A DNA stretch of 64,000 bases from Parcubacteria group bacterium Greene0416_36 (GCA_007375725.1 VMEV01000002.1:45992-109991), one strand, 5' to 3'. Shown: positions 8,427 through 61,966, counted from the first letter of the stretch. Program-made: numbers and translations. Notes: a model not told the origin generated them from the letters alone.

Positions 8427-8533
8427 CTGAGTCACCTGCACTTTGCGGATGTCCTTTATTTGTAGAGACGCGCCATGGCGCGTCTCTACAAATAAAGGAC
8501 AAAATTCCGTAGCTTCCTAGGTGCAGGTGATTC
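8427..8533. mobile_element. 107 bp MITE-like element with 15 bp terminal inverted repeats and REP core GTAGAGACGCGCCATGGCGCGTCTCTAC, flanked by 11 bp direct repeat AGTTGTATTGG
   Basis: TIRs CTGAGTCACCTGCAC / GTGCAGGTGATTCAG; identical 11-mer at 8416-8426 and 8534-8544 (target-site-duplication-like). Confidence 0.6.
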
Positions 8534-8631
8534 AGTTGTATTGGGTTTTGTAAATTATGAATTAAGAACCGCCTTGACTTGTCCGGCACAAGGTTTAATG
8601 TGAGTTCAAAATATTCTTAACTCCATTTCTT

Positions 8632-9639
8632 ATGCAATCTCAAATTTTGACTTCTTCCACGGAGATCACGCGCGCGACGAAGAAGGAACTGATGGATGCG
8701 TATCACGAACTACTCAAGAAATATAAGGATGATTCTGTATCCTCAGAATCAAAATCTGGGGATCCAAAAAAGGAGTCGGATATAAAAGAATCCGGGCCGG
8801 TTTTTTCGACAGGCAAAGATATTTTTGAGTCTATTCATGCGGCTCGTGGATCGGTGCAAGATTTTCTAGGTCAAATAGAGGGATTGCTGATGGGGAAATT
8901 TTCGGAACTCAAAAAGATGGAAGAGCAGCTGGCACATGGGCAGTCGCAATTAAAACTCCAGTATGATATTGAGGCCAATTCAGCTTCTCTCCTCGCTTTG
9001 ATTCGTGCTAATGATGAGAGCCGGCAGAAATTTGATAAGGAAAAAACAGCCCAGAAACAATTGTGGGCGGAAGAAGTGGAAGCCTCTGGGAAGCAGCGAA
9101 AAAGAGATGAGGAGGAATATTTGTATGCCTTGGAAATCAAAAAGAAAAAAGACGCCGAAGAGCAGGCGGAGATGCGAAAGAAATTTGATCAAGAAATTCA
9201 TTCTAGGGAGAAAGTTTTGATTGACCGCGAGAAAAATATGGCCGATAAAGAATCGGAATTCACCCGCCTCCAGGCTTTGGTCTCGAATTTTGACGCGCGC
9301 ATTGAAGAGACTCGCAAACATGCAGCTGCGGAAACGGAAAAAAGGCTGAAAATCGAGCATGAGGTGGCCATGACCCTTCTGAAAAAAGAAATGGATACTC
9401 AAAAAATAGTGGATTCTTCGAAAATTCATACTCTGGAATCCTTGATGGAATCGCAAAAACAAGGTGTGCGCGAACTTCAGGAGCAGCTTGCCAAGGCCAA
9501 TTCTCAAGTGCAGGAAGTGGTTCTGCGCACCATCGACAGCTCCGCGGGCGGCAAGGCCCTAGATGCGGTTAATAAAATCGCCCTAGAGCAGGCCAAAGGC
9601 GGGGTTTCTCAAAATAAATTCGGCAATAATCGGAATTGA
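8632..9639 (+). CDS. K/E-rich coiled-coil protein, function unknown
   Basis: 335-aa ORF, heptad-like charged repeats. Confidence 0.45.
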   Translation: MQSQILTSSTEITRATKKELMDAYHELLKKYKDDSVSSESKSGDPKKESDIKESGPVFSTGKDIFESIHAARGSVQDFLGQIEGLLMGKFSELKKMEEQLAHGQSQLKLQYDIEANSASLLALIRANDESRQKFDKEKTAQKQLWAEEVEASGKQRKRDEEEYLYALEIKKKKDAEEQAEMRKKFDQEIHSREKVLIDREKNMADKESEFTRLQALVSNFDARIEETRKHAAAETEKRLKIEHEVAMTLLKKEMDTQKIVDSSKIHTLESLMESQKQGVRELQEQLAKANSQVQEVVLRTIDSSAGGKALDAVNKIALEQAKGGVSQNKFGNNRN

Positions 9640-9660
9640 TTTGATGAAAAAAACTATAAA

Positions 9661-9707
9661 AAAGTGTAAGGGGTCCGACGTTACGTCGGACCCCTTACAC
9701 TTTTTTT
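9661..9707. terminator. bidirectional intrinsic terminator hairpin (A-run / GTAAGGGGTCCGACG..CGTCGGACCCCTTAC / T-run)
   Basis: 20 bp stem, A-tract upstream and T-tract downstream, between convergent genes. Confidence 0.7.
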
Positions 9708-9709
9708 AC

Positions 9710-10195
9710 TTATCCGCAATCCCCGCACTTCCCATAAAACTCGATTTTATGATTCTCGATGGAGAATTTATTCTTTGATTCGATATTTTTTTCAATTTTT
9801 GACACAAGCATTTCATCCAGCCGTATGTGGTAAATATGCTGGCAGGTATTGCAGAGAAAATGATGGTGGTGGTCTTCTTTGCTAGAGGCCTCGTATCTTT
9901 TTTTGCCCTCTCCCAAATCGATTTCCGATACTAATTTTTTCTTTATAAGAGTCGATAACGCCCGATAAATTGAGGTTTTATTGAGGCTTATTTTTTTTGT
10001 TTTGAGCGATGAGAGGATTTCAGGCACGGAAATAGGGGCGTTTTTTTCAAGAATCTCGAGTATTTCTTTTTTCCCCTGACTCAATTTGAGTCCGGCGGCG
10101 GCGATTTTTTCTTCGATGGAGAGTTTATTCATATTAAAACTTAATATGCAACTATGTTGCGTTTGCAATATAAATGTGTTCGGGAAAAGAGTCAA
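9710..10195 (-). CDS. Fur-family metalloregulator (Fur/Zur/PerR)
   Basis: winged-helix N-term, HHHHFLCNTC...H and CGDCG metal sites; likely true start at internal Met MNKLSIEEK (~10132). Confidence 0.8.
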   Translation of the reverse strand: MTLFPNTFILQTQHSCILSFNMNKLSIEEKIAAAGLKLSQGKKEILEILEKNAPISVPEILSSLKTKKISLNKTSIYRALSTLIKKKLVSEIDLGEGKKRYEASSKEDHHHHFLCNTCQHIYHIRLDEMLVSKIEKNIESKNKFSIENHKIEFYGKCGDCG

Positions 10196-10278
10196 TAGGT
10201 GGCTCTTTTTTTATTTTGTCCGACATTGGAAAGGGTCGGTTTTATTTATTTTTTATAGGTTGAAAGGGGTGAAAAAAA

Positions 10279-10308
10279 GGTAGGGGCACAGCGCGCTGTG
10301 CTCCTACC
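10279..10308. repeat. REP-like hairpin GGTAGGGGCACAGCGCGCTGTGCTCCTACC (A-run upstream, T-run downstream)
   Basis: GTAG...CTAC palindrome; related copies inside glycosyltransferase gene at 56169-56226. Confidence 0.55.
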
Positions 10309-10580
10309 TTTTTTTGAGGTGGCGCTATAAAAGAATACCGACGGCTCTTTGGCTTGTTAATAAGTTCATTTACAAAGATAGAAAACTGGTTTAAATCTTC
10401 TTTCAGATCAAAAATTTTTGTTCTCTTTATCCGTAAGACTCTTGGGGTTCTGGGTATGATTAGCTTTCCCTTCTTAACCGGGGCACAAGTGTTTTATTTC
10501 TCCACTGTTAAGTTTGGACCCCCGAGTCTTACGGATTTTCTTTGTAATTATCAGATTTTTTATCATTTTTTTATAAATAT

Positions 10581-10988
10581 ATGGATCTCAATCGCGTGTT
10601 TTTAATCGGTCATGTAGTCAAAGAGGTGGAAGTGAAAAAACTAGATAGCGGCAAGCAGTGTGCGCGTATTCTCGTGGCTACTAATTTCAAAAAAGGCAAA
10701 GAGGGGGAGAGTGAGGCTTTGTTTCACGAGGTGGTTGCCTGGGACAAGTTGGCCGAGATTGCGGCGAGTTATCTGGCCAAAGGGAAAAAGGTCTTTTTCG
10801 AAGGCCGATTGGACTATCGCTCGTGGGTGGACAAGGAGAATAAAAAACATTTCCGCACCCAGATTGTCGCGGATGAGATGATCTTGCTCGACCGAAAAAA
10901 TCCCGTCGGTGAGGTAAGCCGCGAGGAAACCGAAGAAGGATCCGTCAAGGTAGGGCTTTCGGAAGATCCGTTTGGGTCGGCGGCGTAG
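10581..10988 (+). CDS. ssb: single-stranded DNA-binding protein
   Basis: OB-fold pattern LIGHVVKEVEVK...RILVATN...VVAWDKLAE...RLDYRSW. Confidence 0.75.
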   Translation: MDLNRVFLIGHVVKEVEVKKLDSGKQCARILVATNFKKGKEGESEALFHEVVAWDKLAEIAASYLAKGKKVFFEGRLDYRSWVDKENKKHFRTQIVADEMILLDRKNPVGEVSREETEEGSVKVGLSEDPFGSAA

Positions 10989-11206
10989 GGTTAGGGTCCG
11001 GGAGGGGGAGAGGATAGCTAATAGCCTAGCCATTCGCTCCTCCTTCCGGAATATTTGCGGGTGATTCGTCGCCGCGGGTGAGGGGCCGGACGGAGAAAAA
11101 GGAAAATCAGACCCGCTGCTAATAGAGGGTCTGATTTTTTTATAAACGACAAGGTTTTATCCTTGGCAATAAAAGAATAAAAAGAAAACCCGCCCTGTTT
11201 AGTTTC

Positions 11207-12319: not shown

Positions 12320-12329
12320 AATTTTTTTT

Positions 12330-19230: not shown

Positions 19231-19296
19231 GTTGTATGGTTTTTATTGGAAAATGGCTAGAGGAAGCTGATTATTTTTTTTATATCCGTGGCATTT

Positions 19297-19325
19297 GTAG
19301 GGACGTTGCATTGCAACGTCCCTAC
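19297..19325. repeat. REP-like hairpin GTAGGGACGTTGCATTGCAACGTCCCTAC (extended stem 19290-19332)
   Basis: perfect palindrome after kinase gene; near-identical copy at 59959-59986. Confidence 0.55.
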
Positions 19326-19376
19326 AAATGCCACTAATTTGTGCTTATCTACACCTTATCCACATTGTGAATTACT

Positions 19377-27959: not shown

Positions 27960-28177
27960 AAGTACTATAAATAGATTGTCAAAATGAATTGATCAATTAA
28001 TTAAAAAATCATTCTTAAATCAAAAGAAAAAAATTGATTTCCCGCCAGAGGCGGACAATCGTCGTTTTTTTATAAAAAAATAATGGGCTAATATCAGCCG
28101 AAATAAGCTGATACAAGCTATTTTTTGAGAGTGAATGATTAAGAGAGTATATCACGTTCTATGGAAAAATCAATGGG

Positions 28178-28261
28178 TGCTGGCGGCCGGATTTGAACCG
28201 ACATGATCGAGCGATCGCTAGTCTCTGAAACTAGTGTGTCTACCAATTCCACCACGCCAGC
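28178..28261 (-). tRNA. tRNA-Leu (anticodon CAG), type II with long variable arm; CCA not encoded
   Basis: cloverleaf by hand: acceptor GCTGGCG/CGCCAGC, anticodon stem CTAGT/ACTAG loop TTCAGAG, T-loop TTCAAAT. Confidence 0.85.
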
Positions 28262-28272
28262 TTAATTTCTTG

Positions 28273-28300
28273 GTAAGGGCGTATTGCAATACGCCCTTAC
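28273..28300. repeat. REP hairpin GTAAGGGCGTATTGCAATACGCCCTTAC (family A), between SBP gene stop and tRNA-Leu
   Basis: identical 28-mer also inside and just after the RAYT gene (41268, 41569). Confidence 0.6.
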
Positions 28301-28307
28301 CAAGAAA

Positions 28308-30200
28308 TTATTTCCAAACTCGTTTTGTTTCAATATACCACTCACTGAGATTATTAAACCGGTCGCTGGGTTTGACGATATGATCGATATCGAAATTCTT
28401 GATGTCGTTCGACAAAATGTAGTTGTAGGTGGGGCTGTAAAGAAACAGCGCGGGAATTTCCCCCGATAGAATCTCTAGAAACTGTTTATATAATACTTCT
28501 CTCTGTGTCAAATCTTGATTTTGACGGGCATCGATGATAAGTTTATCGGCATTTTTGTCGGCAAAAGAGGTGAGGTTAAGTCCGGGGTCCTTGGCTTGAG
28601 AAGAATGCCAAAAAGCATAAGGATCGGGATCCAATCCGATATTTTGACCGTAGAGGAGGGCCTCATACTGCCGTTTTTTGATGATTTCTTTTTGTATTTT
28701 TGGGGCGTCAAATAATTTGAGCTCTACCTGCGCTCCAATTTTTTCCCAATAGTCTCGGATCAGTTCTGCTGCTTTTTTGTTTTCCGGATGATCTACCGTT
28801 GTAAGAGAGATGGAAAGAATATGGCCGTCTTTTTCACGGAAAAACTCTTGAGATATGGAGGGAGTTGCTGAATTTTCTAGAAAGGGTTCGAGTTCCTGAT
28901 CGGGTATGTTTTTGGGGTCTTTATCTGACAGTGCGGCGGGGAGGGTTTTATCTTTTTCCGAATCTTTTTTTGCGGCGAAGTTTTTTTCCATCCGGGTTCG
29001 GAGCTGTTTTATCGCTTGTTTTTTTTGCCTGTCTTTATACTCCTGCTGTGATATTTTCTGATATCCCGCCTCTTCGAGTAATTGATTGGCTTTTTGGGGA
29101 TCATAGGAGTCAGAGGGGGTTTGGGGGCCAAGAGATAAGAGGGGGTTATCAATCATTTTTCCTTGTTCTTCCAGCGCATAGTCAATGATTTTTTGTTTAG
29201 AAATCGCAAGTGACAGGGCCTGCCGGACGGTTTTGTTCTGGAGAATATTATTTTGATCTTGGTTGAAAAAAATGGCGGTATATTGAGGGAATGAGAGGGG
29301 GTGGGTAATCAAATGTTGGTTGCCCCTGATTGAGTCTTGTTCTTTTTGAGGCAAGAAATTGATGCCGTCGATTGTGCCATTTTGTATAGCGAGAGTGAGG
29401 TCGGTGGTATTTGCGAAAAAACGGAATTCAATTTTCTCTAGATAGGGTCTCTCTCCGTAAAAATTATCATTTCGGACTAGCGTATAAGATAAAATGGTTC
29501 CTTTCTTGTCTTTTTCTAGGGAATCAAACTTCCAAGGTCCGGAACCGATAGGTTTGCGATTATATTCCACGAGTTTCCAGTTTACAGCTGGGATTTCAGC
29601 CCAAATATGTTTGGGCAAAATCCCGAAAGTCAGGAGAGTGGGAAAAGGGGCGAAGGGCTTTTTGAGGGAAAATTTGAGCGTGTGGGGATCGATTTTTTGA
29701 TATTCTACTCCCCTGAGGCTTAGAAATAAAGGGCTTTGATAGGCCGGATCTAAAATGGCGTCAAGAGTAGCCACGACATCATCGGCATTAAATTTAGCCC
29801 CATCATGCCAATAGACATCTTGGCGCAGAGTGAGGGTGTAGATCAGGGAATCACTGGATATCTCGTAGTCGAGAGCCAGATCGGGTACGAGTTCTTGTTC
29901 TTTATTATATTTGAGCAATCCTGAATACACGAGGGAAGAGATATCATTGTCGATATCGCTGGTTTGAGAGAAGAGCGGATTCAAATAGAGCGGCGTGCCG
30001 ATGCTTCCTTCCGTATATTTGCCTCCCGATTGGGCGACTAGTTGTGTCCGGTTTAATATAAAAGAGGCTCCGATATAGGCGAAGCTCAACACAATAATAG
30101 AGAGCAGTATTTTTAACAGCAGATTTTCTCGGCGTGATAGAATTTTGGGCGTGCTGCGAATCTGTTTCCAAGTGGGAATTTTTTTTCTTTCCAAAAGCAT
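28308..30200 (-). CDS. extracellular solute-binding protein family 5 (OppA/DppA-like) with N-terminal membrane anchor
   Basis: SBP_bac_5-like core (YTLTLRQDVYWHDGAKFNADDVVATL); ORF-track N-terminus overlaps secG, true start likely Met ~30200. Confidence 0.6.
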   Translation of the reverse strand: MLLERKKIPTWKQIRSTPKILSRRENLLLKILLSIIVLSFAYIGASFILNRTQLVAQSGGKYTEGSIGTPLYLNPLFSQTSDIDNDISSLVYSGLLKYNKEQELVPDLALDYEISSDSLIYTLTLRQDVYWHDGAKFNADDVVATLDAILDPAYQSPLFLSLRGVEYQKIDPHTLKFSLKKPFAPFPTLLTFGILPKHIWAEIPAVNWKLVEYNRKPIGSGPWKFDSLEKDKKGTILSYTLVRNDNFYGERPYLEKIEFRFFANTTDLTLAIQNGTIDGINFLPQKEQDSIRGNQHLITHPLSFPQYTAIFFNQDQNNILQNKTVRQALSLAISKQKIIDYALEEQGKMIDNPLLSLGPQTPSDSYDPQKANQLLEEAGYQKISQQEYKDRQKKQAIKQLRTRMEKNFAAKKDSEKDKTLPAALSDKDPKNIPDQELEPFLENSATPSISQEFFREKDGHILSISLTTVDHPENKKAAELIRDYWEKIGAQVELKLFDAPKIQKEIIKKRQYEALLYGQNIGLDPDPYAFWHSSQAKDPGLNLTSFADKNADKLIIDARQNQDLTQREVLYKQFLEILSGEIPALFLYSPTYNYILSNDIKNFDIDHIVKPSDRFNNLSEWYIETKRVWK

Positions 30201-33006: not shown

Positions 33007-33158
33007 ATAAAAAATTATTTATTTTCTGTCATTATAGTTTTTTTATTTGCGGGTGGGAAATGATATGCTAGGTGGTAGGAAGTAGTTGGTAGTGAGTAGG
33101 AAATAAAAATTACTATAACTACTCACTACTCCCTACAAACTACTCACTAATTTTTTCT

Positions 33159-33833
33159 ATGTATAAACGCATCATTCAACAATCCGCCGTCTCGATCATC
33201 ACCTTCGGCGTGTTGGTCGTGGGTTACAACGCCATGGGCGCAGCATGGGTGGGGCCGACGGCCAATCCGCCGGGCAATAACGCGGAAGCGCCCATCAATG
33301 TGGGAGCCGCCGCGCAGGTGAAATCTGGAAGCTTAGGGCTGGGGGTGGCAGTTCCTTCCGCGCCTCTTCATATTCAGGGAAATGGAGGGGTTTTACGCCT
33401 GCAGAGCAATGTGGCGGGGATTGCCGGCAGTGTGAATACAATGTTTTATGATAGCTCGGGAACTCGCCTCGGATATGTGGGGGACGCCTCTTCGGGGAAC
33501 AACCACATTTATCTCGGGTCAGATGTGGGGAATGTGTATCTGAATACTGCCGCGGGTGCCGGAGTGACCGTGACGGCCGGGGGCAATGTCGGCATCATGA
33601 ATGCCAGTCCGACGTCTCGATTGCAAGTGTCCGGCAATCTACGCGTTGATGGATCGATATGTTTTGGCACGGATTGCCGCAGTTCGTGGCCCATAATACC
33701 TGGCACTGGGACTGAAGAATATATTGTCACGAATACTACCGGATTTATTCGTTGTCCGAGCGGGAAAGTGATGACCGGAGTCGGATATTCTGCCTCGGGA
33801 GACGATCATGTCACTTATCTTATCTGTCGATAA
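33159..33833 (+). CDS. secreted tail-fibre-like repeat protein
   Basis: N-terminal AWVGPTANPPGNN motif shared with 31527 gene; GNVGI / SRLQVSGNLRV fibre-like repeats. Confidence 0.45.
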   Translation: MYKRIIQQSAVSIITFGVLVVGYNAMGAAWVGPTANPPGNNAEAPINVGAAAQVKSGSLGLGVAVPSAPLHIQGNGGVLRLQSNVAGIAGSVNTMFYDSSGTRLGYVGDASSGNNHIYLGSDVGNVYLNTAAGAGVTVTAGGNVGIMNASPTSRLQVSGNLRVDGSICFGTDCRSSWPIIPGTGTEEYIVTNTTGFIRCPSGKVMTGVGYSASGDDHVTYLICR

Positions 33834-36843: not shown

Positions 36844-36871
36844 AATTTGAGAGATTTTTTATAAAAAAATA

Positions 36872-36899
36872 GTAGAGACGCGCCATGGCGCGTCTCTAC
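36872..36899. terminator. REP hairpin GTAGAGACGCGCCATGGCGCGTCTCTAC flanked by A-run/T-run (bidirectional terminator, family C)
   Basis: perfect 28 bp palindrome between convergent small ORF and glyA; same core as 8462-8489. Confidence 0.6.
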
Positions 36900-36917
36900 T
36901 ATTTTTTTATGATCTCT

Positions 36918-38165
36918 CTAAATATATTTCACCCCCTCATAAAGCGGAAATTTTTCCGTCATCTTCTCCACTTCTTTTTTCACTTCTGCGTGGATATTCG
37001 TGTCGTCAATATTTTCCAAGACGCGCACGATCCAGTGTCCGACTTGCTCCATTTCTTTTTCCTTCATCCCGCGGGTTGTAAGAGCCGGGGTGCCGATGCG
37101 CAGTCCTCCCGGATCCTGTGGGGGGCGAGAGTCAAAAGGCACGGCGTTTTTGTTGGTGTGGATTCCGGCCACGTCAAGGGCGTCTTGAGCCTGTTTTCCG
37201 GAGAGATTTTTATTGGCGAGGTCGATTAAAATAAGATGATTGTCCGATCCGCCGGAGACGAGAGTGAAGTCGTGCTCACGGAGAATATTACAGAGAATTT
37301 GAGTATTGAGAAGGATTTGCTTGGAATACTGCTTGAATTCGTCCGTCATGGCCTCGGCAAAACACACCGCTTTTCCGGCGATGATGTGCTCGAGAGGGCC
37401 CCCCTGAAGGCCAGGGAAGATGGCCTTGTCGATTTTGGAGGCGATATCTTTGTCATTGGAGAGAATGAGTCCGCCTCGAGGACCTCGGAGGGTTTTGTGA
37501 GTCGTTGAAGTTACCACATGCGCATGTGGTATTGGGTTGGAGTGGACTCCTGCGGCGACAAGTCCGGCGATATGGGCCATGTCCACCATGAAGAGGGCTC
37601 CGATTTCGTCGGCGATCGCTCGAAAAGCGGGGAAGTCCCATTCGCGCGAGTAGGCCGAAGCGCCGGCGAGAATCATTTTGGGTTTGAGTTCGAGGGCGAT
37701 TTTACGAACTTCCTCCATATCAATTCGTCCGGTTTTGGGACTCGCGCTGTAGAATGAGAATTTGAAAAGTTTTCCCGAAAAGTTGACCGGGTGTCCGTGA
37801 GTGAGGTGTCCTCCGTGATCGAGTTTGAGCGAGAGAATCGTATCGCCAGGTTGAAGGAGCGCCAAATATACCGCCATATTAGCCTGCGAACCCGCGTGTG
37901 GCTGAACATTGGCATAGGCACATCCGAAAAGCTTTTTCGCGCGGTCAATCGCCAGTTTTTCGATCTCGTCAATCCACTCATTGCCGCCATAATAGCGTTT
38001 GCCTGGGTAACCTTCCGCGTATTTATTGGTCAGCACGGATCCTGCGGCTTCCAGCACCGCTTCGGACGTATAATTTTCCGACGCAATCATCTCGAGTCCG
38101 TTTCGCTGGCGCGCGAGTTCGTTTTGGAGGAATTGGGCGAGGATGGGGTCGCGATGGGAGAGCAT
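36918..38165 (-). CDS. glyA: serine hydroxymethyltransferase
   Basis: PLP-lysine region [28 protein letters not shown]. Confidence 0.9.
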
Positions 38166-38297
38166 AGGGAATTAAAAATTAAGAATGAAGAATGAAGAAT
38201 GAAGAATTTTCTGCAACCTTATCAAATATAAAGGGGTTTGGACAGTTGCAAAATGATTTATTTTGTGTATAATTATCTAATTATTATCAGACAATTT

Positions 38298-38594
38298 ATG
38301 AATTTAAATTTTGTATCCACCACTCAGCTACAAAAAAATCCCAGTAAAGTATTGAATGAAGAAGGTATTCAAATTGTGCTTAAAAATAATCAGATGCAGG
38401 GGGTTATTTTTTCGGCTAAAATTGCCAAGCGTTTTTTGGATTTAGCCACATTGAGGCAGATTCAGGAGGAGCTTTATGAAATGTCGGATCCCGAGACGGT
38501 CAAAGTGATTGAAGAAGGCCGATCGGGAAAGAAAAAAGGCGTGGATTTTTTTGATTTCATGAAACAATATGGCGTACAAGGTAGAAAACGTTAG
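38298..38594 (+). CDS. small protein, possible Phd/YefM-like antitoxin fold
   Basis: N-term FVSTTQLQKNPSKVL...IQIVLKNNQMQGVIFS pattern; start at internal Met of ORF 38238. Confidence 0.3.
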   Translation: MNLNFVSTTQLQKNPSKVLNEEGIQIVLKNNQMQGVIFSAKIAKRFLDLATLRQIQEELYEMSDPETVKVIEEGRSGKKKGVDFFDFMKQYGVQGRKR

Positions 38595-38643
38595 TTTATC
38601 AATTGTGATCATGGTTTGAATTTAAAAATGTTATCTTAATACT

Positions 38644-38994
38644 ATGCCCCTTTATTTGATAGAAGAACCGATTTCTATTGAAAGGCTGAAAGAAATTGCC
38701 AGTGAACGTTTTGGTGATATGGTTAAAGTTGTTGTAGATATTGAAAAAGGGGCTATGGTTGTAGGGGGAGAATTGCATGCTGATGAAGAATCAGATCTGA
38801 TCGGAAGAGGATCGATGCAGGAAAATTTATGGGGGATCAATTTATATCCCGACATTACCGGAGAGAATTGGCTAGAATTTGATTCAATGATCAATGTTCG
38901 TCCTAGGCAAAATAATCGTACTCGAGGGGTTGAGGACCCTGATATTAGAGAGAAAATCAATCGCCTTGTTGATCAATTGGTGAAGCGATCATGA
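38644..38994 (+). CDS. hypothetical protein
   Basis: 116 aa; overlaps next ORF by 4 nt (ATGA). Confidence 0.35.
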   Translation: MPLYLIEEPISIERLKEIASERFGDMVKVVVDIEKGAMVVGGELHADEESDLIGRGSMQENLWGINLYPDITGENWLEFDSMINVRPRQNNRTRGVEDPDIREKINRLVDQLVKRS

Positions 38995-39332
38995 TTTTAG
39001 ATTTTATGAACACTATGCACTCTGTAGAAAATTGGCATGTATTATCTCTGTCTTCTCAGATGGGCAATATTGGCAGTGAAATTTCAAGGGCAAAAAATTG
39101 GAGAGGCCGAAATGATATTCAATATATAAAAGCATTGGAACGAGCTTTTGAATTGTTGGATTTGACATTATCGGATCCCGCACGAAATCATCAGCTTCGT
39201 GAAATTTCCAGAGTGCGCGAAGTTCTCGCTGATATTTATCTCGGATCGTTTGAATATAAAACCACTCTCGAAGATTTAGACCGCTATTTCATGCCCTTTG
39301 CGATTGTCGCAAGAAAAGAAATGAATCGATAA
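38991..39332 (+). CDS. hypothetical protein
   Basis: 113 aa, translationally coupled to 38644 gene. Confidence 0.35.
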   Translation: MILDFMNTMHSVENWHVLSLSSQMGNIGSEISRAKNWRGRNDIQYIKALERAFELLDLTLSDPARNHQLREISRVREVLADIYLGSFEYKTTLEDLDRYFMPFAIVARKEMNR

Positions 39333-39336
39333 ATTT

Positions 39337-39579
39337 ATGAGCGAATCCAAAAAACGCCTCAAACTCGTAGTGACTGAAAAATGTATCGGGTGCGTGACCT
39401 GTGAGGTTTTGTGCCCCGAAGTTTTCAAACTCGAAAACGACGGCCGCGCCCACATCAAAGACGGCTTCGACGCGGAGAAAAATAAAAAGGGCATCGACGA
39501 GTCGATATTGGCGTGCCCGACTCAGGCGATTGAGTGGCAGTCTGAGGACACCCCGTCATCCCCGAATTCTGCAGCGTGA
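39337..39579 (+). CDS. small ferredoxin
   Basis: CIGCVTCEVLCP ... ACPTQAI cysteine pattern. Confidence 0.6.
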   Translation: MSESKKRLKLVVTEKCIGCVTCEVLCPEVFKLENDGRAHIKDGFDAEKNKKGIDESILACPTQAIEWQSEDTPSSPNSAA

Positions 39580-39658
39580 TTTTTTGACACGGTAAGTTTG
39601 GATCGGGGATCTCAGGTCCCTAAAATTTTTTTATCGGTATTCACACGACCGCAAAAAA

Positions 39659-39688
39659 GGTAAGGGCTCAAAATTTTGAGCCCTTACC
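39659..39688. repeat. hairpin GGTAAGGGCTCAAAATTTTGAGCCCTTACC + T-run; core of ~100 bp repeat unit E (copy 1, ~39632-39733)
   Basis: whole ~100 bp unit duplicated at ~40274-40378. Confidence 0.55.
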
Positions 39689-39776
39689 TTTTTTAGATGG
39701 GGGGAATAATTTGAGAATAAAAAAATCAGAACCTTGGATGGTCTGAAATTTTGTGAGGTGGAGTAGTCCTCTGGTT

Positions 39777-40132: not shown

Positions 40133-40190
40133 TTTTTGTCAATATACCCATCCTCCTCATTATTTTGTAAGATAGGCGGGAATTGGGGAA
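40133..40190. repeat. ~56 bp conserved motif TTTGTCAATATACCCATCCTCCTCATTATTTTGTAAGATAGGCGGGAATTGGGGAA (copy A)
   Basis: repeated at 40866-40922 (abutting RAYT start) and 45318-45377. Confidence 0.5.
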
Positions 40191-40303
40191 GGTAGAGATA
40201 AAATACGAATTAATGATTAGGTCTTTAGGCCCGCTTTAGGGCGAAGTGGGAGGATCTCATCTACTTGGGGTCTCTTATCGATACTCACTTGACGGCTAAA
40301 AAA

Positions 40304-40333
40304 GGTAAGGGCTCAAAATTTTGAGCCCTTACC
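40304..40333. repeat. repeat unit E copy 2 hairpin GGTAAGGGCTCAAAATTTTGAGCCCTTACC
   Basis: identical to 39659-39688 including flanks. Confidence 0.55.
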
Positions 40334-40433
40334 TTTTTTAGCGGGGGGGGGAATAATTTTGGAATAAAAAAATCAGAATTTTCATTCTGAGTTTTTTGCG
40401 CCTAGATTTGCGGACGCGATTTTTATATTGCGA

Positions 40434-40865: not shown

Positions 40866-40922
40866 TTTTGTCAATATACCCATCCTCCCCATTATTTTGT
40901 AAGATAGGCGGGAATTGGGGAA
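40866..40922. repeat. 56-bp motif copy B, immediately 5' of RAYT start codon
   Basis: ends GGGAATTGGGGAAAT-ATG; ORF-track N-terminus (MSIYPSS...) is read-through of this motif. Confidence 0.5.
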
Positions 40923-40924
40923 AT

Positions 40925-41527
40925 ATGTCGGTCACATATGAATGGGAGCGGAAATCGATGAGACTTGTGGGCTATGATTATTCGAAGCCGGGGTTTTATT
41001 TTGTGACGGTTTTGACGAAGGATAGGGAATGTTTGTTTGGGGAGATTGAAGAGGGGGAGATGAGGTTGGGTGAGATGGGAAAGATTGCGGAGGGAGAGTG
41101 TTTGAAAACTTCGGAGATTCGAAAAAACATCAAGGTTGATTGTTTTGTGGTGATGCCAAATCATGTTCATGGGATTATTGAGATTATGGATGTTGACGGC
41201 GATCCGGGTAAGGACAATGTACTCGAGTCTCGACCTGGTAAGGGCACGGTGCTTGAGAGTCTACCCGGTAAGGGCGTATTGCAATACGCCCTTACCTCGA
41301 GTCGGGTGGGGTTTCGTTCTCCGTCCAATAATCTTGGTGCCGTGATCAGGGGATATAAATCATCAGTCACCAAACAAATCAATGACCTTCGTAATACCCC
41401 GTGCAATCCTGTCTGGCACCGCAACTACCACGATCACATCATCCGATCACTGGAGGAACTTGAAAATATCCGAGAGTATATAAAAAATAATCCACGAAGA
41501 TGGAAAGACGATCCGGAGAATGTTTAA
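40925..41527 (+). CDS. REP-associated tyrosine transposase (RAYT; IS200-like HuH transposase) carrying in-frame REP/tandem-repeat insert
   Basis: HuH motif MPNHVHGII, C-terminal WHRNYHDHIIRS...IREYIKNNPRRW; standalone, no IS ends recognised. Confidence 0.7.
   Translation: MSVTYEWERKSMRLVGYDYSKPGFYFVTVLTKDRECLFGEIEEGEMRLGEMGKIAEGECLKTSEIRKNIKVDCFVVMPNHVHGIIEIMDVDGDPGKDNVLESRPGKGTVLESLPGKGVLQYALTSSRVGFRSPSNNLGAVIRGYKSSVTKQINDLRNTPCNPVWHRNYHDHIIRSLEELENIREYIKNNPRRWKDDPENV
41204..41306 (+). repeat. three tandem ~30 bp repeats (CCnGGTAAGGnCAnnGTnCTnGAGnCTCnA), third containing REP GTAAGGGCGTATTGCAATACGCCCTTAC (41268-41295), in-frame inside RAYT
   Basis: encodes PGKDNVLESR / PGKGTVLESL / PGKGVLQYAL in the loop where RAYTs normally have a Gly-rich segment. 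Confidence 0.65.
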
Positions 41528-41568: not shown

Positions 41569-41596
41569 GTAAGGGCGTATTGCAATACGCCCTTAC
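41569..41596. repeat. REP GTAAGGGCGTATTGCAATACGCCCTTAC 42 nt downstream of RAYT stop
   Basis: third identical copy of family A. Confidence 0.6.
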
Positions 41597-44773: not shown

Positions 44774-44790
44774 AGAGGGTATCAAACAAA

Positions 44791-44836
44791 AGTAAAAGCG
44801 GTCCGAAGTAATATCGGACCACTTTTACTTTTTTAC
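44791..44836 (+). terminator. intrinsic terminator after ileS (AGTAAAAGCGGTCCGA..TCGGACCACTTTTACT + T6)
   Basis: hairpin shares GGTCCGA...TCGGACC core with terminator at 9661. Confidence 0.65.
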
Positions 44837-51611: not shown

Positions 51612-51613
51612 GA

Positions 51614-51699
51614 ACAACAAATCCCTCCCCAACCCTCCCTTTGACAAGGGAGGGGGTGGCCTCCCCCTTGTCAAAGGGGGATTGAGGGGGATTTGTTGC
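51614..51699. repeat. MITE-like element copy 6, between DUF3048-like gene and pilin gene
   Basis: CAACAAATCCCTCCCCAACCCTCCCTTTGACAAGGGAGGGGGTGGCCTCCCCCTTGTCAAAGGGGGATTGAGGGGGATTTGTTGC. Confidence 0.8.
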
Positions 51700-51708
51700 T
51701 TCAAATAT

Positions 51709-55237: not shown

Positions 55238-57343
55238 ATGAATTTTCTCGGAAAAATTTCCGTCATCATCGCCTGCTTCAACTATGGCCGATTCATTGAA
55301 GAGGCCATTGAGAGTGTCCTGGAATCCACGTTTCAGGATTTTGAAATTGTGGTGGTGGATGACGGGTCTACAGATCCGGAGACGATTCGAGTGCTGGACG
55401 CGCTGGATCATCCAAGAATTCGATTGGTTCGACAGAAAAATCAGGGGCTCGCTATGGCTCGTAATAATGGCATAGAGGCGAGTTTCGGCGAGTATTTTTT
55501 GCCTCTGGACGCGGATGATAAAATTGCGCCGACGATGCTGGAAAAGTTTGTTGCCGTACTGGAAACTCGGCCTGATGTGGGGTTTGTTTATTCGTGGATT
55601 CAATTTTTTGGAGATGAAAATCGGGTTTTTAAAACTCAGGACGCGGATTTGAGCATTCTTCGCGAAGAAAATATCTGCTGTGGGTGTTCTTTGGTTCGAA
55701 AAGAGGCGTGGCGCGAGGTCGGGGGCTATGTTCCGGGTCTCTACGGGTACGAAGACTGGAATCTGTGGATTACTCTCGTTGAGAATGGCTGGCTGGGGGT
55801 TTCGATTCCCGAGATCCTTTTCTATTACCGTCGCCACGGCAAAACCATGCTCGCCGACGGCCAGAGCCGGCACTGGTATTTGATGGGGGAGATGGGGAAG
55901 TTGCATGCCCCCATGATCAGTGAGGGCGCACACATAGGTGCGCCCCTACGGGAGGGGGTTGCTTTGGTAAAAAAATTCCAAAATAAACTCACCTCCGAAG
56001 ACCTCCTCAATTGGCGCCTCTGGAAACAGTCTCCCTGGTACATGGCCAAGCGCACAATTCCCAATGGGATTAAATGGAAGGTCAAAGTCGTGTATTGGAA
56101 GATCAAGTCTTTATTTTTGAGGGGGAAAAAAGAGGCGGCGAGGCGCGAGATTTTGGCGGGGGTGGCGCGTAGGGGCACAGCGCGCTTGTCCGCCGTAGCT
56201 TTAGCGAAGGAGGGCTGTGCCCCTACGCGGGGTGAAGGGGTAACCAAAAAATCCATTCTCTATATCCTCCCCACCGTCTCGGTTGGCGGGGTTGAAAAGA
56301 CCGCGCTTGATACGATTCAGGCACTCCGAGGCGAGTTTGATTTCACGATTATTGTCAGTCAAAAAGGCGAGCACGCTTGGGCAGAGGCCTTCCGATCGGC
56401 AGGGGCACAGCTATTTTTTCTTGAAGACATTCGCGACCCATCACTGTGGGTCGAATTGCTACGGGGGGTGATTGCATTACGGAGAATCGAAGTGATTCAT
56501 ATCGCGAATTCGATTTGGGGCTATAGCCAAACCGCTTGGATTAAGGAGAAGTTCCCACATATCCGCATCATCGATATTTTTCAGGGTGGGGAAGTGGAAG
56601 GGGGCGTGATCGGCTGGAATCGGCAGTTCGAGGGGAATATCGACCAAACGATCGTCGTGAATTCCGGATTGTTCGAGAAATTGATCCATAAAGGCTCGCC
56701 GAGGGAGAAATTCATTTGTATTCCCAATGGCGTGTCGCTCTTGAAATTTTCTCGGGATAAAGTGGTTGTATCCGGAGAAGAGATTCGTTGGAAATGGGGA
56801 TTGCCTCTAGACCGTCCTATTATTTCTTTTGTCTCCCGTCTGTCTTCTGAAAAGAATCCTCTTTTTTTTCTTGAAGTCGCCAAAGCCATCCATGCCGCGC
56901 GTACGGGTGCCTTTTTTGTGGTTGCCGGATCGGGATATTTGCAGGATTTATTTTTAAATAAAAGAGCGGAGTTGAAACTGGAACATTCTCTCCGGTATTT
57001 TCCTCATCTACAGAATATTCCCGAACTGCTCAGCGTTTCATCGGTACTGGTCAATACGTCACTGACCGAAGGCTGGTCGGTGGCGATTCTGGAGGCTATG
57101 GCCATGGAAGTGCCGGTGGTGGCGTCTCGGATCTGGCAGAATGCGGCCTTGGTGGAAGAAGGGAAAACCGGACTCTTGGCTGATCTGGGCAATGTGAATG
57201 CTTATCGAGACTCGATTTTGCAGGTGCTGGATGATCCTTATTTATCCGGAGCGTTGGCTCTGAATGCGCGCAAAAAAGTGGTCGAGGAATATGGAATAGC
57301 AAAAATGGCGTCGAGGTATCGGGATTTGTATTTTTCCTATTAA
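55238..57343 (+). CDS. glycosyltransferase fusion: family 2 (N) + family 1/GT4 (C), linker containing REP-like sequences
   Basis: GT2 VVDDGS...DADD; GT4 C-term EGWSVAILEAMAMEVPVVAS; REP-like at 55924-55947 and 56169-56226. Confidence 0.65.
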   Translation: MNFLGKISVIIACFNYGRFIEEAIESVLESTFQDFEIVVVDDGSTDPETIRVLDALDHPRIRLVRQKNQGLAMARNNGIEASFGEYFLPLDADDKIAPTMLEKFVAVLETRPDVGFVYSWIQFFGDENRVFKTQDADLSILREENICCGCSLVRKEAWREVGGYVPGLYGYEDWNLWITLVENGWLGVSIPEILFYYRRHGKTMLADGQSRHWYLMGEMGKLHAPMISEGAHIGAPLREGVALVKKFQNKLTSEDLLNWRLWKQSPWYMAKRTIPNGIKWKVKVVYWKIKSLFLRGKKEAARREILAGVARRGTARLSAVALAKEGCAPTRGEGVTKKSILYILPTVSVGGVEKTALDTIQALRGEFDFTIIVSQKGEHAWAEAFRSAGAQLFFLEDIRDPSLWVELLRGVIALRRIEVIHIANSIWGYSQTAWIKEKFPHIRIIDIFQGGEVEGGVIGWNRQFEGNIDQTIVVNSGLFEKLIHKGSPREKFICIPNGVSLLKFSRDKVVVSGEEIRWKWGLPLDRPIISFVSRLSSEKNPLFFLEVAKAIHAARTGAFFVVAGSGYLQDLFLNKRAELKLEHSLRYFPHLQNIPELLSVSSVLVNTSLTEGWSVAILEAMAMEVPVVASRIWQNAALVEEGKTGLLADLGNVNAYRDSILQVLDDPYLSGALALNARKKVVEEYGIAKMASRYRDLYFSY
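56169..56226. repeat. interrupted REP-like palindrome GTAGGGGCACAGCGCGC...GCTGTGCCCCTAC inside glycosyltransferase ORF
   Basis: arms match 10280-10307 hairpin; read in-frame as ...RRGTARLSAVALAKEGCAPTRG... Confidence 0.55.
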
Positions 57344-58393: not shown

Positions 58394-58484
58394 CGATCAA
58401 TAATAAATGAATCATTACGGATGATCTATTTGCCTTGACTGTTTCATTCGTAATTCATAATTTGTAATTCTTAATTGATTCTCT

Positions 58485-58913
58485 ATGGCAAAAAATATTA
58501 TATTGGCGCTCATCGCGGTTGCGGTCATTGGCGGCGGGATTTATTATGCTACCTCCCGTAATGACGGGTATACTTCCAAATGGGAGAAAAAGGATAAGCT
58601 TCCTGTGAATGGCGGAAATAAAGATGATGTAAGAAAGATGGAGGAACAGAAGATGCTGGAGTCTTGCATGGCTCTATATGGATCCGGCAAGGTGGATCCT
58701 TCGTCGATGAAGGGTTGCCAGGATTATTGCAAGACGATGATAGAGGGCGGCACGCGGATGGACGCTCAAAAGACCGAAATGTGTGCGAGCATGATGAAAG
58801 GATTCGAAGGTTCGTCCGCTGCCACCCCCGCTTCCGAATCCGAACTTTTGCTCCAGGATAATCTGGACGAATCCTTGGATTCACTCAAAATTTTGGAGCA
58901 GGTAGGGAGCTAG
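58485..58913 (+). CDS. hypothetical secreted Cys-containing protein
   Basis: N-terminal TM/signal, 142 aa. Confidence 0.35.
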   Translation: MAKNIILALIAVAVIGGGIYYATSRNDGYTSKWEKKDKLPVNGGNKDDVRKMEEQKMLESCMALYGSGKVDPSSMKGCQDYCKTMIEGGTRMDAQKTEMCASMMKGFEGSSAATPASESELLLQDNLDESLDSLKILEQVGS

Positions 58914-58977
58914 TGAATGATCATATTTTAAAGTAGTCTTTTGAAAGCTGGCTCCTTCGTCGAAAGCCAGCTTTTGT

Positions 58978-59931
58978 GTGAAGGTGATGATTGGAGCTCA
59001 TTTTGTCACAAAAAATATGGGACTCGCTCAATTACAAAAAATAAAACGAATGAAAGTCGTGGAGCCTATTGTATTGGATGCTTCTCTTCTAAAGAAAGTG
59101 TCAAGGGCTTATGGCGAAGATCGTTTGCCCGATATAAAAAAGCGCGTGGAAGAATTGGATTATTATCGTATCCGTTATCAATCCGGTAAATATGAAGTCG
59201 AAGGATTTGTCATTGAGCCGAAGATGGGAGAAAATTTGCCCTGTCTTATTGTTAATCGCGGGGGATCGGGGGATTTTGGAAAGTGGGAAATGGAGAGATT
59301 ATTTGGTTTTCTGTCGAGGTTTGCCTCATGGGGTTACATTGTAATCGCTTCCCAGTATCGTGGATGCGGAGGGAGCGAGGGCAAAGATGAATTTGGGGGA
59401 TCGGATATTGAGGATGTTGTGAATTTGTATAAAATTCTCAAGGATTATCCGAGAGCTGATACGGAGAAGATCGGTATGTATGGAGCGAGCCGTGGCGGAA
59501 TGATGACCTATTTGATGCTTGCAAAAGTTCGCTGGTTGCGGGCTGCTGTTTCCGTTGCGGGGCTGGCGAATAAATTCCGGCAGCAAGAATTGCGTCCGGA
59601 TATGAAAGAGCATCAAGCTTTATTTTTCAACCCCACAAAAGCTGAATTAACAAGAAGATCTGCGGTATTTTGGGCGGATCAATTCGCAAAAAAAACGCCA
59701 TTGCTCATGATTCATGGGACGGCGGATTGGCGCGTGTCAGTTTTGGATTCTATTGAATTGGCTCAAGAATTGTATGAAAATAAAATTCCGTTTCGTCTGA
59801 ATGTGTTGGAAGGAGGAGATCATGGTTTGACGGAACATGATGCCGAAAAAATGAGGCAAATCCATGACTGGTTTGACCGTTTCGTCAAAAAAGGAGAAAA
59901 ATTACCGAATTTGAAATATCATGGGAAATGA
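58978..59931 (+). CDS. alpha/beta hydrolase (prolyl-oligopeptidase / dienelactone-hydrolase-like)
   Basis: nucleophile elbow MYGASRGGM, HGTADWRV, C-terminal His; start may be Met ~59017. Confidence 0.55.
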   Translation: MKVMIGAHFVTKNMGLAQLQKIKRMKVVEPIVLDASLLKKVSRAYGEDRLPDIKKRVEELDYYRIRYQSGKYEVEGFVIEPKMGENLPCLIVNRGGSGDFGKWEMERLFGFLSRFASWGYIVIASQYRGCGGSEGKDEFGGSDIEDVVNLYKILKDYPRADTEKIGMYGASRGGMMTYLMLAKVRWLRAAVSVAGLANKFRQQELRPDMKEHQALFFNPTKAELTRRSAVFWADQFAKKTPLLMIHGTADWRVSVLDSIELAQELYENKIPFRLNVLEGGDHGLTEHDAEKMRQIHDWFDRFVKKGEKLPNLKYHGK

Positions 59932-59958
59932 TGATTTTGTTTTAAACGTCGACCATTG

Positions 59959-59986
59959 AGTAGGGACGTTGGATGCAACGTCCCTA
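59959..59986. repeat. REP-like hairpin GTAGGGACGTTGGATGCAACGTCCCTAC (family B copy 2)
   Basis: 28 nt after hydrolase stop; near-identical to 19297-19325. Confidence 0.55.
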
Positions 59987-60136
59987 CTCAATGGTCTGAC
60001 ATTGACTCATCACCCTTTCTTTTATAGACTAAAACAATTATTAAATTTGGATTTTTGAGATTCTGTTGTTTCTAGATCCTGAATCCTTCCGCCAAAGGCG
60101 GATCCGCCTTTGGCGGAAAATCCTGAATCCTAATCT

Positions 60137-61903
60137 ATGTTTCGTACCAATACCTGCGGAGAACTCACTTCTTCGTTTGTCGGGAAAAAGGTCATGCTTT
60201 CGGGTTGGGTGCAGACTCGGCGCGATTTGGGGGGATTTATTTTCATTGATTTACGCGATCGTTTTGGTGTCACTCAAATCACTTTTTCCAAAGACGAGAA
60301 TCAGGCTCTCTGGGAGTCGGTGGATAAGCTTCGCTCGGAGTATGTGATTCGCGTGGAAGGCTCGGTGGTAGCTCGAGAAAAAAATAATATCAATTCTAAG
60401 TTAGCAACAGGAGAAATTGAACTCAAAGCTCGAGTCTTAGAAGTTCTCAATCCTTCCGAGCCTTTGCCTTTTGATTTATTTGGTCCGGATGCGGACAGCG
60501 TGAACGAGGAATTACGTTTGAAATATCGATTTTTGGATTTACGCCGGCCCCGCCTGCGAGACAATATTTTGTTCCGCGCGAAAATGATCCGCTATATCCG
60601 CAATTGGATGGAGAATACCGGTTATACCGAGTTTCAAACTCCGATTTTGACGGTCTCGTCACCTGAAGGATCGCGCGATTATTTGGTTCCGTCCCGACTT
60701 CACCCCGGGAATTTTTACGCGCTTCCTCAGGCGCCCCAGCAATTCAAGCAGCTCCTCATGATTTCGGGATTCGACAAGTATTTTCAGATCGCTCCGTGTT
60801 TCCGCGATGAAGACGCCCGTGCTGACCGCGCGCCCGGTGAATTCTATCAGCTCGACGTAGAATGCAGTTTCAAGACCCGCGATGAATTTTTGTCGGAGAT
60901 GGAGCCGCTATTCATTGATTTGACCGAGCAATTGACGGATAAAAAAGTATGGAAAAAGCCTTTTCCCCGCATTCCTTACAAACAGGCTCTGGATCTCTAT
61001 GGTTCGGATAAGCCGGATTTGCGCTATGGTTTGGAGTTCCACAATCTGACTGATTGGGCCAAGAAAAGCGCGGTCAAGATTTTCCACGGCGCGGATCATA
61101 CCAAGGGTATTTGTGTCTCCGGCGGAGCGGAATTTTCCAGAAAGGAAATTGAGGAAGAATTTGAAAAGACGGCCCAGGATAATGGCGCGGCGGGTCTGGT
61201 CTGGCTTAAGGTGAGGGATAGTGGACTTGAAGGATCGATTGCGAAATTGCTCACACCGGAGGATCAAGCTTATTTGATTCGTGAATTCGGGGCTAAAAAA
61301 GGCGATATTATCTTTATCATTTCAGCGGAATATTCGATTCTCTGCCGCTCCTTGGGACGCGTGCGCAACTTGGCGGCGGCCAAGAAGGGCCTCGCGGATC
61401 CCAAACTTATTGCTTGGGCATGGGTCGTCGATTTCCCCATGTATGAATACAATGATGAATTAAAAAAGATTGATTTTGTTCATAATCCCTTCTGCATGCC
61501 TCAAGGCGGCATGAAGGCTCTCTCGGAAATGGATCCGATCTCGATTTTGGCCGATCAGTATGACGTGGTGGCCAACGGCCTCGAGATCTGTTCGGGTTCA
61601 GTGCGCAACAATCGGCCGGATATTATGTATAAGGCCTTTAGTATCGCTGGGTACACGAAAGAAGAGGTGGACGCGAAGTTTGGCCACATGATCCGCGCCT
61701 TTTCTCTGGGCGCGCCTCCGCACTGCGGGTTTGCTCCTGGCATCGACCGTCTGGTGATGCTTTTCTCCGGCGAGAAAAATATCCGCGAGATCATTCCTTT
61801 TCCCAAGAATCAGGCCTGCCAGGATTTGATGATGAACGCGCCTGGGGAAGTGCGGCCGGAACAGCTGAGGGAATTGAAGATTAAGGTGGATTTGAAGATG
61901 TAA
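60137..61903 (+). CDS. aspS: aspartyl-tRNA synthetase
   Basis: N-terminal OB anticodon-binding domain, class II motifs FRDEDARADRAPGEFYQLD and GLDRLVMLF. Confidence 0.9.
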   Translation: MFRTNTCGELTSSFVGKKVMLSGWVQTRRDLGGFIFIDLRDRFGVTQITFSKDENQALWESVDKLRSEYVIRVEGSVVAREKNNINSKLATGEIELKARVLEVLNPSEPLPFDLFGPDADSVNEELRLKYRFLDLRRPRLRDNILFRAKMIRYIRNWMENTGYTEFQTPILTVSSPEGSRDYLVPSRLHPGNFYALPQAPQQFKQLLMISGFDKYFQIAPCFRDEDARADRAPGEFYQLDVECSFKTRDEFLSEMEPLFIDLTEQLTDKKVWKKPFPRIPYKQALDLYGSDKPDLRYGLEFHNLTDWAKKSAVKIFHGADHTKGICVSGGAEFSRKEIEEEFEKTAQDNGAAGLVWLKVRDSGLEGSIAKLLTPEDQAYLIREFGAKKGDIIFIISAEYSILCRSLGRVRNLAAAKKGLADPKLIAWAWVVDFPMYEYNDELKKIDFVHNPFCMPQGGMKALSEMDPISILADQYDVVANGLEICSGSVRNNRPDIMYKAFSIAGYTKEEVDAKFGHMIRAFSLGAPPHCGFAPGIDRLVMLFSGEKNIREIIPFPKNQACQDLMMNAPGEVRPEQLRELKIKVDLKM

Positions 61904-61920
61904 GACATGTAAGGCAAAAA

Positions 61921-61966
61921 ACTGTAAGGGCTCCGATGTTACATCGGAGCCCTTACAGTTTTTTTA
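61921..61966 (+). terminator. intrinsic terminator ACTGTAAGGGCTCCGATGT-TA-ACATCGGAGCCCTTACAGT + T7
   Basis: 19 bp stem right after aspS; GTAAGGG..CCCTTAC ends like the REP family. Confidence 0.7.

Follow-up and report, generated by a model that had tools for sequence, protein, structure and literature searches.

We analysed a 64,000-nt stretch of DNA (hereafter the window) from Parcubacteria group bacterium Greene0416_36 (GCA_007375725.1 VMEV01000002.1:45992-109991), a groundwater member of the candidate phyla radiation (CPR) with a tiny genome. The window has a G+C content of 45% and a positive GC skew throughout, its + strand carries most genes, and tRNA-Leu was its only match in an Rfam search. 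Scattered over it are short palindromes resembling repetitive extragenic palindromes (REPs), and at 40958-41527 lies a gene of the REP-associated tyrosine transposase (RAYT, or TnpA-REP) type, with one family A palindrome inside it and another 41 nt after it. An earlier interpretation of the same DNA (the sequence-only reading) had proposed a superfamily of REP-like hairpins with conserved ends and variable centres, of the type recognised by RAYTs. The superfamily is real, although of a kind already described, and the REP/RAYT interpretation is supported by our analysis, with corrections to the families and to a claim about convergent genes.

The window was searched with the pattern GTA[AG]…[CT]TAC, requiring complementary 10-nt arms, and 200 dinucleotide-preserving shuffles served as the control. 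This search returned 18 matches at 15 loci against a shuffle mean of 0.16 (maximum 2). Fourteen of the 15 loci are REP copies (Table 1). The fifteenth, at 33075-33143, is a different structure, in which four GTAGnnn heptads (GTAGGAA GTAGTTG GTAGTGA GTAGGAA) are followed by a 16-nt A/T spacer and four mirrored CTACnnn heptads; it lies in a divergent spacer, ahead of a gene starting at 33159. The REP cores measure 28 bp (families A, C, D and E, and copy B2), 29 bp (B1) or 33-37 bp (family S). Their ends are fixed as GTA plus A or G, followed mostly by GGGC, GGAC or AGAC and mirrored at the 3′ end; the centre varies by family yet stays self-complementary. Apart from a single G·T at 10280, all pairing within the cores is Watson-Crick. 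The symmetry of families A, C, D and E extends across the four innermost bases, for which pairing in a hairpin is impossible. All 14 copies carry a double foot (5′ GT[AG]G and 3′ C[TC]AC on one hairpin), and exact 28-mers recur at unrelated sites of the window. Across 20 distinct 28-mers, a set chosen by a palindrome filter, G1, T2, A3, T26, A27 and C28 are invariant; pair counts over these cores were dropped as a test, being descriptive only given the same filter. The copies are all single palindromes with no spacer, and no two are paired within 100 bp, which places them outside the definition of REPINs (two inverted REPs with a spacer between them, moving as a unit); zero-spacer collapse of a REPIN is nevertheless a possible view, according to Quentin et al. 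(PMC6006769).

Table 1. Positions (window coordinates), sequences and surroundings of the RAYT gene and the REP copies.
Feature	Position	Strand	Core, arms or motifs	Context
Family C copy 1	8450-8501		core GTAGAGACGCGCCATGGCGCGTCTCTAC 8462-8489; 12-bp site-specific arms TGTCCTTTATTT/AAATAAAGGACA	RNA fold -41.4 kcal/mol; no T-run after
Family S copy 1	9658-9706		core 9666-9698; arms AAAAAAGT/ACTTTTTT	between convergent genes, stops 9639 and 9710; flagged terminator-like on both strands
Family D	10272-10315		core 10280-10307, one G·T mismatch; arms AAAAAAAG/CTTTTTTT	FUR-SSB divergent spacer
Family B copy 1	19288-19334		core 19297-19325; 9-bp site-specific arms GTGGCATTT/AAATGCCAC	tandem + strand genes on both sides
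Family A copy 1	28263-28310		core 28273-28300; 10-bp arms TAATTTCTTG/CAAGAAATTA	
Family C copy 2	36859-36912		core 36872-36899; arms ATAAAAAAATA/TATTTTTTTAT	18 nt past SHMT stop (- strand), then T-run on - strand
Family E copy 1	39653-39694		core 39660-39687; arms AAAAAAG/CTTTTTT	between convergent genes
Family E copy 2	40293-40344		core 40305-40332	within ~115-bp segmental repeat common to copy 1
RAYT (TnpA-REP) gene	40958-41527	+	HuH MPNHVHGI; W motif VWH; Tyr motif EYIKNNP	189 aa in the NCBI annotation
Family A copy 2	41268-41295		no palindromic arms	in frame in RAYT open reading frame, peptide GKGVLQYALT
Family A copy 3	41569-41596		no palindromic arms	41 nt past RAYT stop
Family S relative	44788-44832		core GTAAAAGCGGTCCGAAGTAATATCGGACCACTTTTAC 44792-44828; arms AAAA/TTTT	18 nt past IleRS stop
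One-footed REP	55924-55949		GGGCGCACACATAGGTGCGCCCCTAC	in frame (EGAHIGAPL), linker of GT2-GT4 glycosyltransferase open reading frame
Family D feet and stem	56169-56226		32 nt inserted centrally	in frame (RRGTARLSAVALAKEGCAPT), linker of GT2-GT4 glycosyltransferase open reading frame
Family B copy 2	59951-59996		core 59960-59987; 9-bp site-specific arms GACCATTGA/TCAATGGTC	28 nt past peptidase gene stop
Family S copy 2	61916-61964		core 61924-61956; arms AAAAAACT/AGTTTTTT	20 nt past AspRS stop

The gene at 40958-41527 matches the NCBIfam model REP_Tyr_transpos (NF047646, 'REP-associated tyrosine transposase') with E 3.7e-18, the match falling into two parts on either side of an insert. At E < 1e-5 there are 1773 homologs, and JGI labels many of them 'REP element-mobilizing transposase RayT'; a profile of 27 of these homologs matches Escherichia coli TnpA-REP (PDB 4ER8) at E 2.3e-6. 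In the alignment of the 27, H69 and H71 of the HuH motif (residues 66-73) and Y174, I175 and N178 of the Tyr motif are invariant. The two motifs fit NH[IFV]H and YIxNNP, the signatures of TnpA-Y1 subclass 2.4, equal to Bertels group 4 (PMC6006769). Double-foot REPs (5′ GT[AG]G, 3′ C[TC]AC) together with in-frame REPs between the HuH and Tyr motifs are described for this subclass only (PMC6006769), and both traits are seen here. At the position of the in-frame REP, homologs from Bacteroidota, Nitrospirota, Armatimonadota and Omnitrophota have either RGVLQYAPT or VGAYCNTPL; these peptides are two reading frames of GTAGGGGCGTATTGCAATACGCCCCTAC, and four such homolog REPs were verified in DNA. An IS200/IS605 element does not fit: there is one tnpA-type gene in 81 kb, its Tyr motif YIKNNP is of class 2, and no tnpB adjoins it. 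Directly upstream of the RAYT there is no REP, the nearest being of family E, ~600 bp off and past another gene.

Within the RAYT open reading frame (ORF), 41208-41297 consists of three tandem 30-nt units (starting at 41208, 41238 and 41268), each opening with GTAAGG; they encode GKDNVLESRP, GKGTVLESLP and GKGVLQYALT, and the third alone is an intact REP. Some RAYT homologs, with lengths of 240-295 aa, hold several units of this 30-nt type. A 57-bp promoter-like stretch (TTGTCA-16-CATTAT…TAAGATAGGCGGGAATTGGGGAA) is present in two near-identical copies, at 40136-40192 and 40866-40922. The latter lies just 5′ of the RAYT start and the former ~130 nt 5′ of REP copy E2, so that a short transcript ending at E2 is possible.

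From these features, the palindromes of the window are probably double-foot REPs, the non-autonomous partners of a subclass 2.4 (group 4) RAYT encoded at 40958-41527. The reading draws on the anatomy of the palindromes, their linkage to the RAYT, their wide spread, their positions and their mirrored arms, all of which are read from the DNA itself. By its class, the RAYT would be an HUH/Y1 single-strand DNA endonuclease-ligase that cuts and joins REP DNA. By analogy with E. coli TnpA-REP, IS200/IS605 and IS608, it would bind the hairpin together with its foot where these fold in single-stranded DNA and would then cut and rejoin the strand, which would seed or exchange copies; the element being a full palindrome, either strand would present the same substrate.

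All 14 positions listed in the sequence-only reading do hold the palindromes it described, but its grouping needed revision in several places, and it overlooked the copy at 44792-44828, a more distant relative of family S. The palindromes at 9665 and 61923, regarded as singletons, are a single 49-bp family with three differing positions, each compensated on the opposite arm; one of the three falls in the flank. Both family B palindromes stand, except that the second had been placed one base off, at 59959, and that the two differ by a shorter centre (GGATGC vs GCATTGC) and not by a C/G swap. For family D, the copy at 10280 was correct and that at 56169 was correct apart from its central insert, but the element at 55924, taken for a remnant of the family, is a different REP with one foot. 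Since the two copies of family E share a segmental repeat, they are not independent insertions. The two in-frame elements at 55924 and 56169 belong to a 701-aa ORF (55238-57343), in which GT2 and GT4/GT1 glycosyltransferase domains are joined by a ~130-aa linker containing both; if its homologs are two separate genes, the REPs may have fused them. In family A copy 1, the right arm contains the stop codon of a solute-binding protein (SBP) gene (28308-28310) and the left arm stops 1 nt short of the 5′ end of tRNA-Leu (28261). This tRNA-Leu(CAG), on the - strand in the region 28176-28310, has on its 5′ side a REP palindrome that begins at the stop of the upstream gene, and would need processing from a transcript with a 24-bp hairpin on that side.

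Assembly artefact was rejected as an origin of the window copies, which are internal, have different flanking genes and read the same in the NCBI, ENA and Logan assemblies. The REP sites are likewise identical in other assemblies of the same organism, and the sole difference found between the window and contig VMHD01000001.1 (GCA_007379055.1, 'Parcubacteria group bacterium Gr01-1014_18') is a 22-nt indel. Short-read contigs of this and related organisms (L002, L125, L144 and L164) end exactly within REP cores: L002 spans window positions 36881 to 39682, and L144 and L164 begin with the same REP. REPs therefore fragment such assemblies, and copy counts from metagenome-assembled genomes are expected to be too low.

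The family A core is widespread. A search for its 20-nt centre in a species-representative genome collection returned at least 120 stretches in more than 70 genomes from many phyla; those among the matches listed include Cyanobacteria, Planctomycetota, Atribacterota, Omnitrophota, Sumerlaeota, Nitrospirota, Chloroflexota, Bacteroidota and three CPR lineages. Among the same matches the usual layout was GTAG-20 nt-CTAC, and the loci holding this core also contained many other centres in 28-bp double-foot palindromes. Phages were rejected as carriers of the common core, with only 9 stretches in 2.9 million viral contigs.

The positions of the copies relative to genes bear on what they might do. 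Eleven of the 14 are intergenic, and nine of these lie 7-101 nt 3′ of a stop codon (seven within 7-41 nt). Most copies lie between tandem genes; two are between convergent genes (9666 and 39660), one is in a divergent spacer (10280) and three are intragenic and in frame (41268, 55924 and 56169). Terminator scanning requires loops of 3-8 nt and therefore misses loop-free palindromes, so flanks were inspected and folding energies were used instead. Seven copies (9666, 10280, 36872, 39660, 40305, 44792 and 61924) have A-run/T-run arms resembling those of intrinsic terminators, mostly in both directions, the one at 10280 being oddly placed. The sequence-only reading had described bidirectional terminators sitting between convergent genes: the terminator-like anatomy holds for these seven copies, but only 2 of 14 copies have convergent neighbours. 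Judged by anatomy, the A/T-armed REPs appear to be intrinsic, often two-way, terminators. The G+C-rich hairpin would serve as the stem of 3′-end structures, acting as such a terminator where A-run/T-run arms are present and as a 3′ protective hairpin where there is no T-run. Should the palindromes be nothing else than ordinary intrinsic terminators, alike by convergence and with no mobile element involved, the seven armed copies after stop codons would be explained. Exact 28-mers, however, are repeated at unrelated sites and across phyla, in-frame copies occur in ORFs that include the RAYT gene, five copies have no T-run and one lies in a divergent spacer. Because identical cores repeat and are linked to a RAYT, this explanation is contradicted, and we consider it extremely improbable.

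The sequence-only reading did not mention that the palindromes extend into site-variable flanks. In 11 of the 14 copies, a perfect palindrome continues 7-12 bp past the foot, whereas about 0.001 copies with arms of at least 7 bp would be expected by chance. The arms vary within a family, as between TGTCCTTTATTT and ATAAAAAAATA in family C or GTGGCATTT and GACCATTGA in family B, and are absent from the two RAYT-linked copies and the intragenic copy. In ~75 other genomes, picked solely by the family A core, 133 double-foot palindromes showed extensions of 0 (93), 1 (16), 2 (11), 3 (7) or at least 4 bp (6), which is near chance with a small tail; long arms are thus not a general trait of the element.

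Long arms were found again by a metagenome search for AAAAAG + GTARGGGC-N12-GCCCYTAC + CTTTTT, which returned 43 stretches with cores mostly equal to that of window family E save for a G-type foot and a few central bases. Beyond the six required bases, their flanks are still perfectly palindromic and site-variable; the extension has a mode of 20 bp and reaches at least 13 bp in 35 of 51 double-foot palindromes. These palindromes usually occupy a whole convergent spacer, ending 0-9 nt from both stops. In one of them, L150, two convergent ORFs share their final 13 nt, GAAGTCATCATAA (…KSS*), because both ORF ends sit inside the arms. Orthologous loci were also compared, at ~80% identity. Between L135 and L139/L168, the core is unchanged and the arms differ as TT vs AA, mirrored on both arms. 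Between L149 and L144, core and arms both differ at a first site; at a second site, L149 and L144 with L164 have near-identical, mirrored arms around a swapped central 12 nt, an A-like core facing an E-like one. Such mirrored changes and the core swap indicate that arms evolve in concert and that cores are exchangeable. L136 was set aside, since its 38-bp arm reaches the end of the contig, where it could be a fold-back artefact of assembly.

The site-specific arms would be best explained by replication template switching, a process for which homogenisation and expansion of inverted-repeat arms have been described (PMC8794818, PMC13100816). A nascent strand would fold on the perfect core and copy its own flank; such hairpin-primed copying would make the arms identical and longer, and would stop at constrained coding or tRNA sequence, as at 28263-28310. 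Tentatively, and with more doubt than confidence, we suggest a broader role in which the REP core is, in some genomes, the seed of a self-symmetrising palindrome: repeated template switching would turn spacers, and even the last codons and stops of convergent genes, into one hairpin around an exchangeable core, so that REPs might build or renew two-way terminators, with the reduced CPR genome holding a shorter form.

Alternatively, REPs may have been inserted into the loop or dyad centre of pre-existing hairpins such as native terminators, in which case the arms would be older than the cores and no symmetrising would be needed. REP-free long hairpins with loops of 0-1 nt are indeed abundant: the stems of 25 hairpins in the window reach 12 bp or more (0.23 expected), and 17 of these hairpins have 0-1 nt loops. 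Single-strand transposases require unpaired DNA, which loops offer, and one orthologous site has kept its arms while its core was swapped. Nevertheless, in all 11 armed copies the core passes into the arm without a break in pairing and no loop bases are left between them, A/T-run arms stripped of the core would make no working terminator stem, and arm differences between relatives are mirrored. The arms of L150, furthermore, take in the final 13 nt of two convergent genes that are unrelated, a layout that, judged from its sequence, hairpins older than the gene ends cannot explain. We regard insertion into older hairpins as rather unlikely. In the metagenome contigs L126-L168, too, REP-free hairpins are very long: their stems measure 12-35 bp, most have loops of 3-5 nt, the outer part is rich in A/T and the inner part in G+C, and no two are the same (e.g., AAACCAGTTTTGTGTTCTTCAGCGCCTGCGGCGCTGAAGAACACAAAACTGGTTT).

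The core swap also touches the question of whether a RAYT is needed at all. Cores might be spread or exchanged by copy-choice or gene conversion between hairpins with common feet and A/T runs, the RAYT being domesticated for another role or inactive. Retention of the arms around a swapped central 12 nt (L149 vs L144 and L164), the presence of several core families beside one visible RAYT and the Q-to-H change in its W motif all favour such a scenario. The RAYT gene is intact, however, with its catalytic motifs present and its own REP inside, identical 28-mers stand in non-homologous flanks (C1/C2 and B1/B2), and the foot is conserved over phyla, as recognition by a protein predicts. Spread without a RAYT is, in our judgement, unlikely.

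Several observations weigh against regarding the palindromes as REPs mobilised by this RAYT and serving as 3′-end structures. The NF047646 score of 65.8 bits is below the curated cut-off of 80, and the Pfam Y1_Tnp match is weak (20.3 vs a cut-off of 23). In the W motif, the region of which recognises GTAG in 4ER8, W153 is conserved but position 154 is H where the clade has Q (WH vs WQ). The homologs P0007, P0013, P0025 and P0028 have WH as well; a link between this change and the change from a GTAG to a GTAA foot was rejected, since P0005 and P0027 combine WQ with a GTAA-type peptide. Physical linkage to the RAYT involves family A alone, and families B-E and S may rely on other RAYTs elsewhere or on none. 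No empty site or insertion polymorphism was found, so mobility in this genome is putative; as to relatives suitable for comparing sites, the best homolog of an 847-aa neighbour protein is only 48% identical. The sequence-only reading had expected the pattern outside the window, which is the case in the genomes sharing the family A core but not in the further 17 kb of the same contig that were scanned, where no copy was found (14 copies per 64-kb window vs 0). A terminator label does not fit the five intergenic copies without a T-run (8462, 19297, 28273, 41569 and 59960), RAYT activity and transcript ends are predictions, and selection for two-way termination could keep A/T-run arms with no special DNA mechanism.

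Other repeats and palindromes are present in the window. A second family of hairpin repeats, ~90 bp long (…AAATCCCTCCCCAACCCTCCCTTTGACAAGGGAGGGGG…CCTCCCCCTTGTCAAAGGGGGATTGAGGGGGATTT…) and ~94% identical between copies, occurs at 1972-2057, 5381-5469 (reverse) and 51613-51701, each copy beginning 2-18 nt past a stop codon, and at 14876-14964 of L124. The 22-nt indel between the window and the NCBI record, at 2031-2052, is located at the edge of one of these copies. At 60076-60130, a perfect 32-bp palindrome, TTCCGCCAAAGGCGGATCCGCCTTTGGCGGAA, is composed of two small hairpins and has the direct repeat ATCCTGAATCC on both sides, resembling an insertion with target duplication. A perfect 20-bp palindrome, TACCACATGCGCATGTGGTA, lies within the SHMT coding sequence at 37512-37531.

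Our analysis places a REP/RAYT system in a CPR bacterium, a group whose very small genomes are thought to be poor in repeats, and finds one 28-bp REP nearly unchanged over many phyla. If the arms are indeed hairpin-primed, REPs would be a source of new 3′-end structures and altered gene ends, and template-switch mutation in uncultivated bacteria could be read from the arms by sequence alone. A literature search found no paper linking CPR or Patescibacteria with REPs or RAYTs.

The closest known counterparts are the double-foot REPs of TnpA-Y1 subclass 2.4 (Quentin et al. 2018, PMC6006769), equivalent to RAYT group 4 (Bertels et al. 2017, PMC5581495). Both systems have the same feet, NH[IFV]H and YIxNNP, one REP beside the gene and another in frame between its HuH and Tyr motifs, and a patchy spread over many phyla. 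The present one differs in its CPR host, in WH instead of WQ and in a GTAA instead of a GTAG foot on the RAYT-linked family; in addition, most of its dispersed copies have site-specific palindromic arms, which are absent from the published accounts found. With the GTAG-tagged REP superfamily (Di Nocera et al. 2013, PMC3733652) and the E. coli REP/TnpA-REP pair (PDB 4ER8), it shares the GTAG tag, a small G+C-rich hairpin, extragenic positions mostly 3′ of genes, occasional in-frame copies and several families per genome. In those elements, however, GTAG is unpaired and at one end, whereas here it is at both ends, paired with its mirror and without a bulge, and all copies are single, with no head-to-head dimers, bacterial interspersed mosaic elements (BIMEs) or spacer-containing REPINs. 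Compared with bidirectional intrinsic terminators, the G+C-rich stem, the A-run/T-run flanks and the location just past stops are the same, and the metagenome relatives fill the convergent spacer; yet the stem here is repeated, exchangeable and far longer and more perfect than termination needs, and about one-third of the window copies have no T-run. Inverted repeats attributed to template switching (PMC8794818; PMC13100816) have the same perfect Watson-Crick stems, mirrored multi-base differences and outward growth, but here, as we propose from present-day sequences, a mobile REP core would nucleate the process, and stop codons and a tRNA gene would limit it. The system thus belongs to a known kind, double-foot REPs paired with a RAYT of subclass 2.4, in a host group that is new for it, and only the self-symmetrising, site-specific arms and the core swapping may be new.

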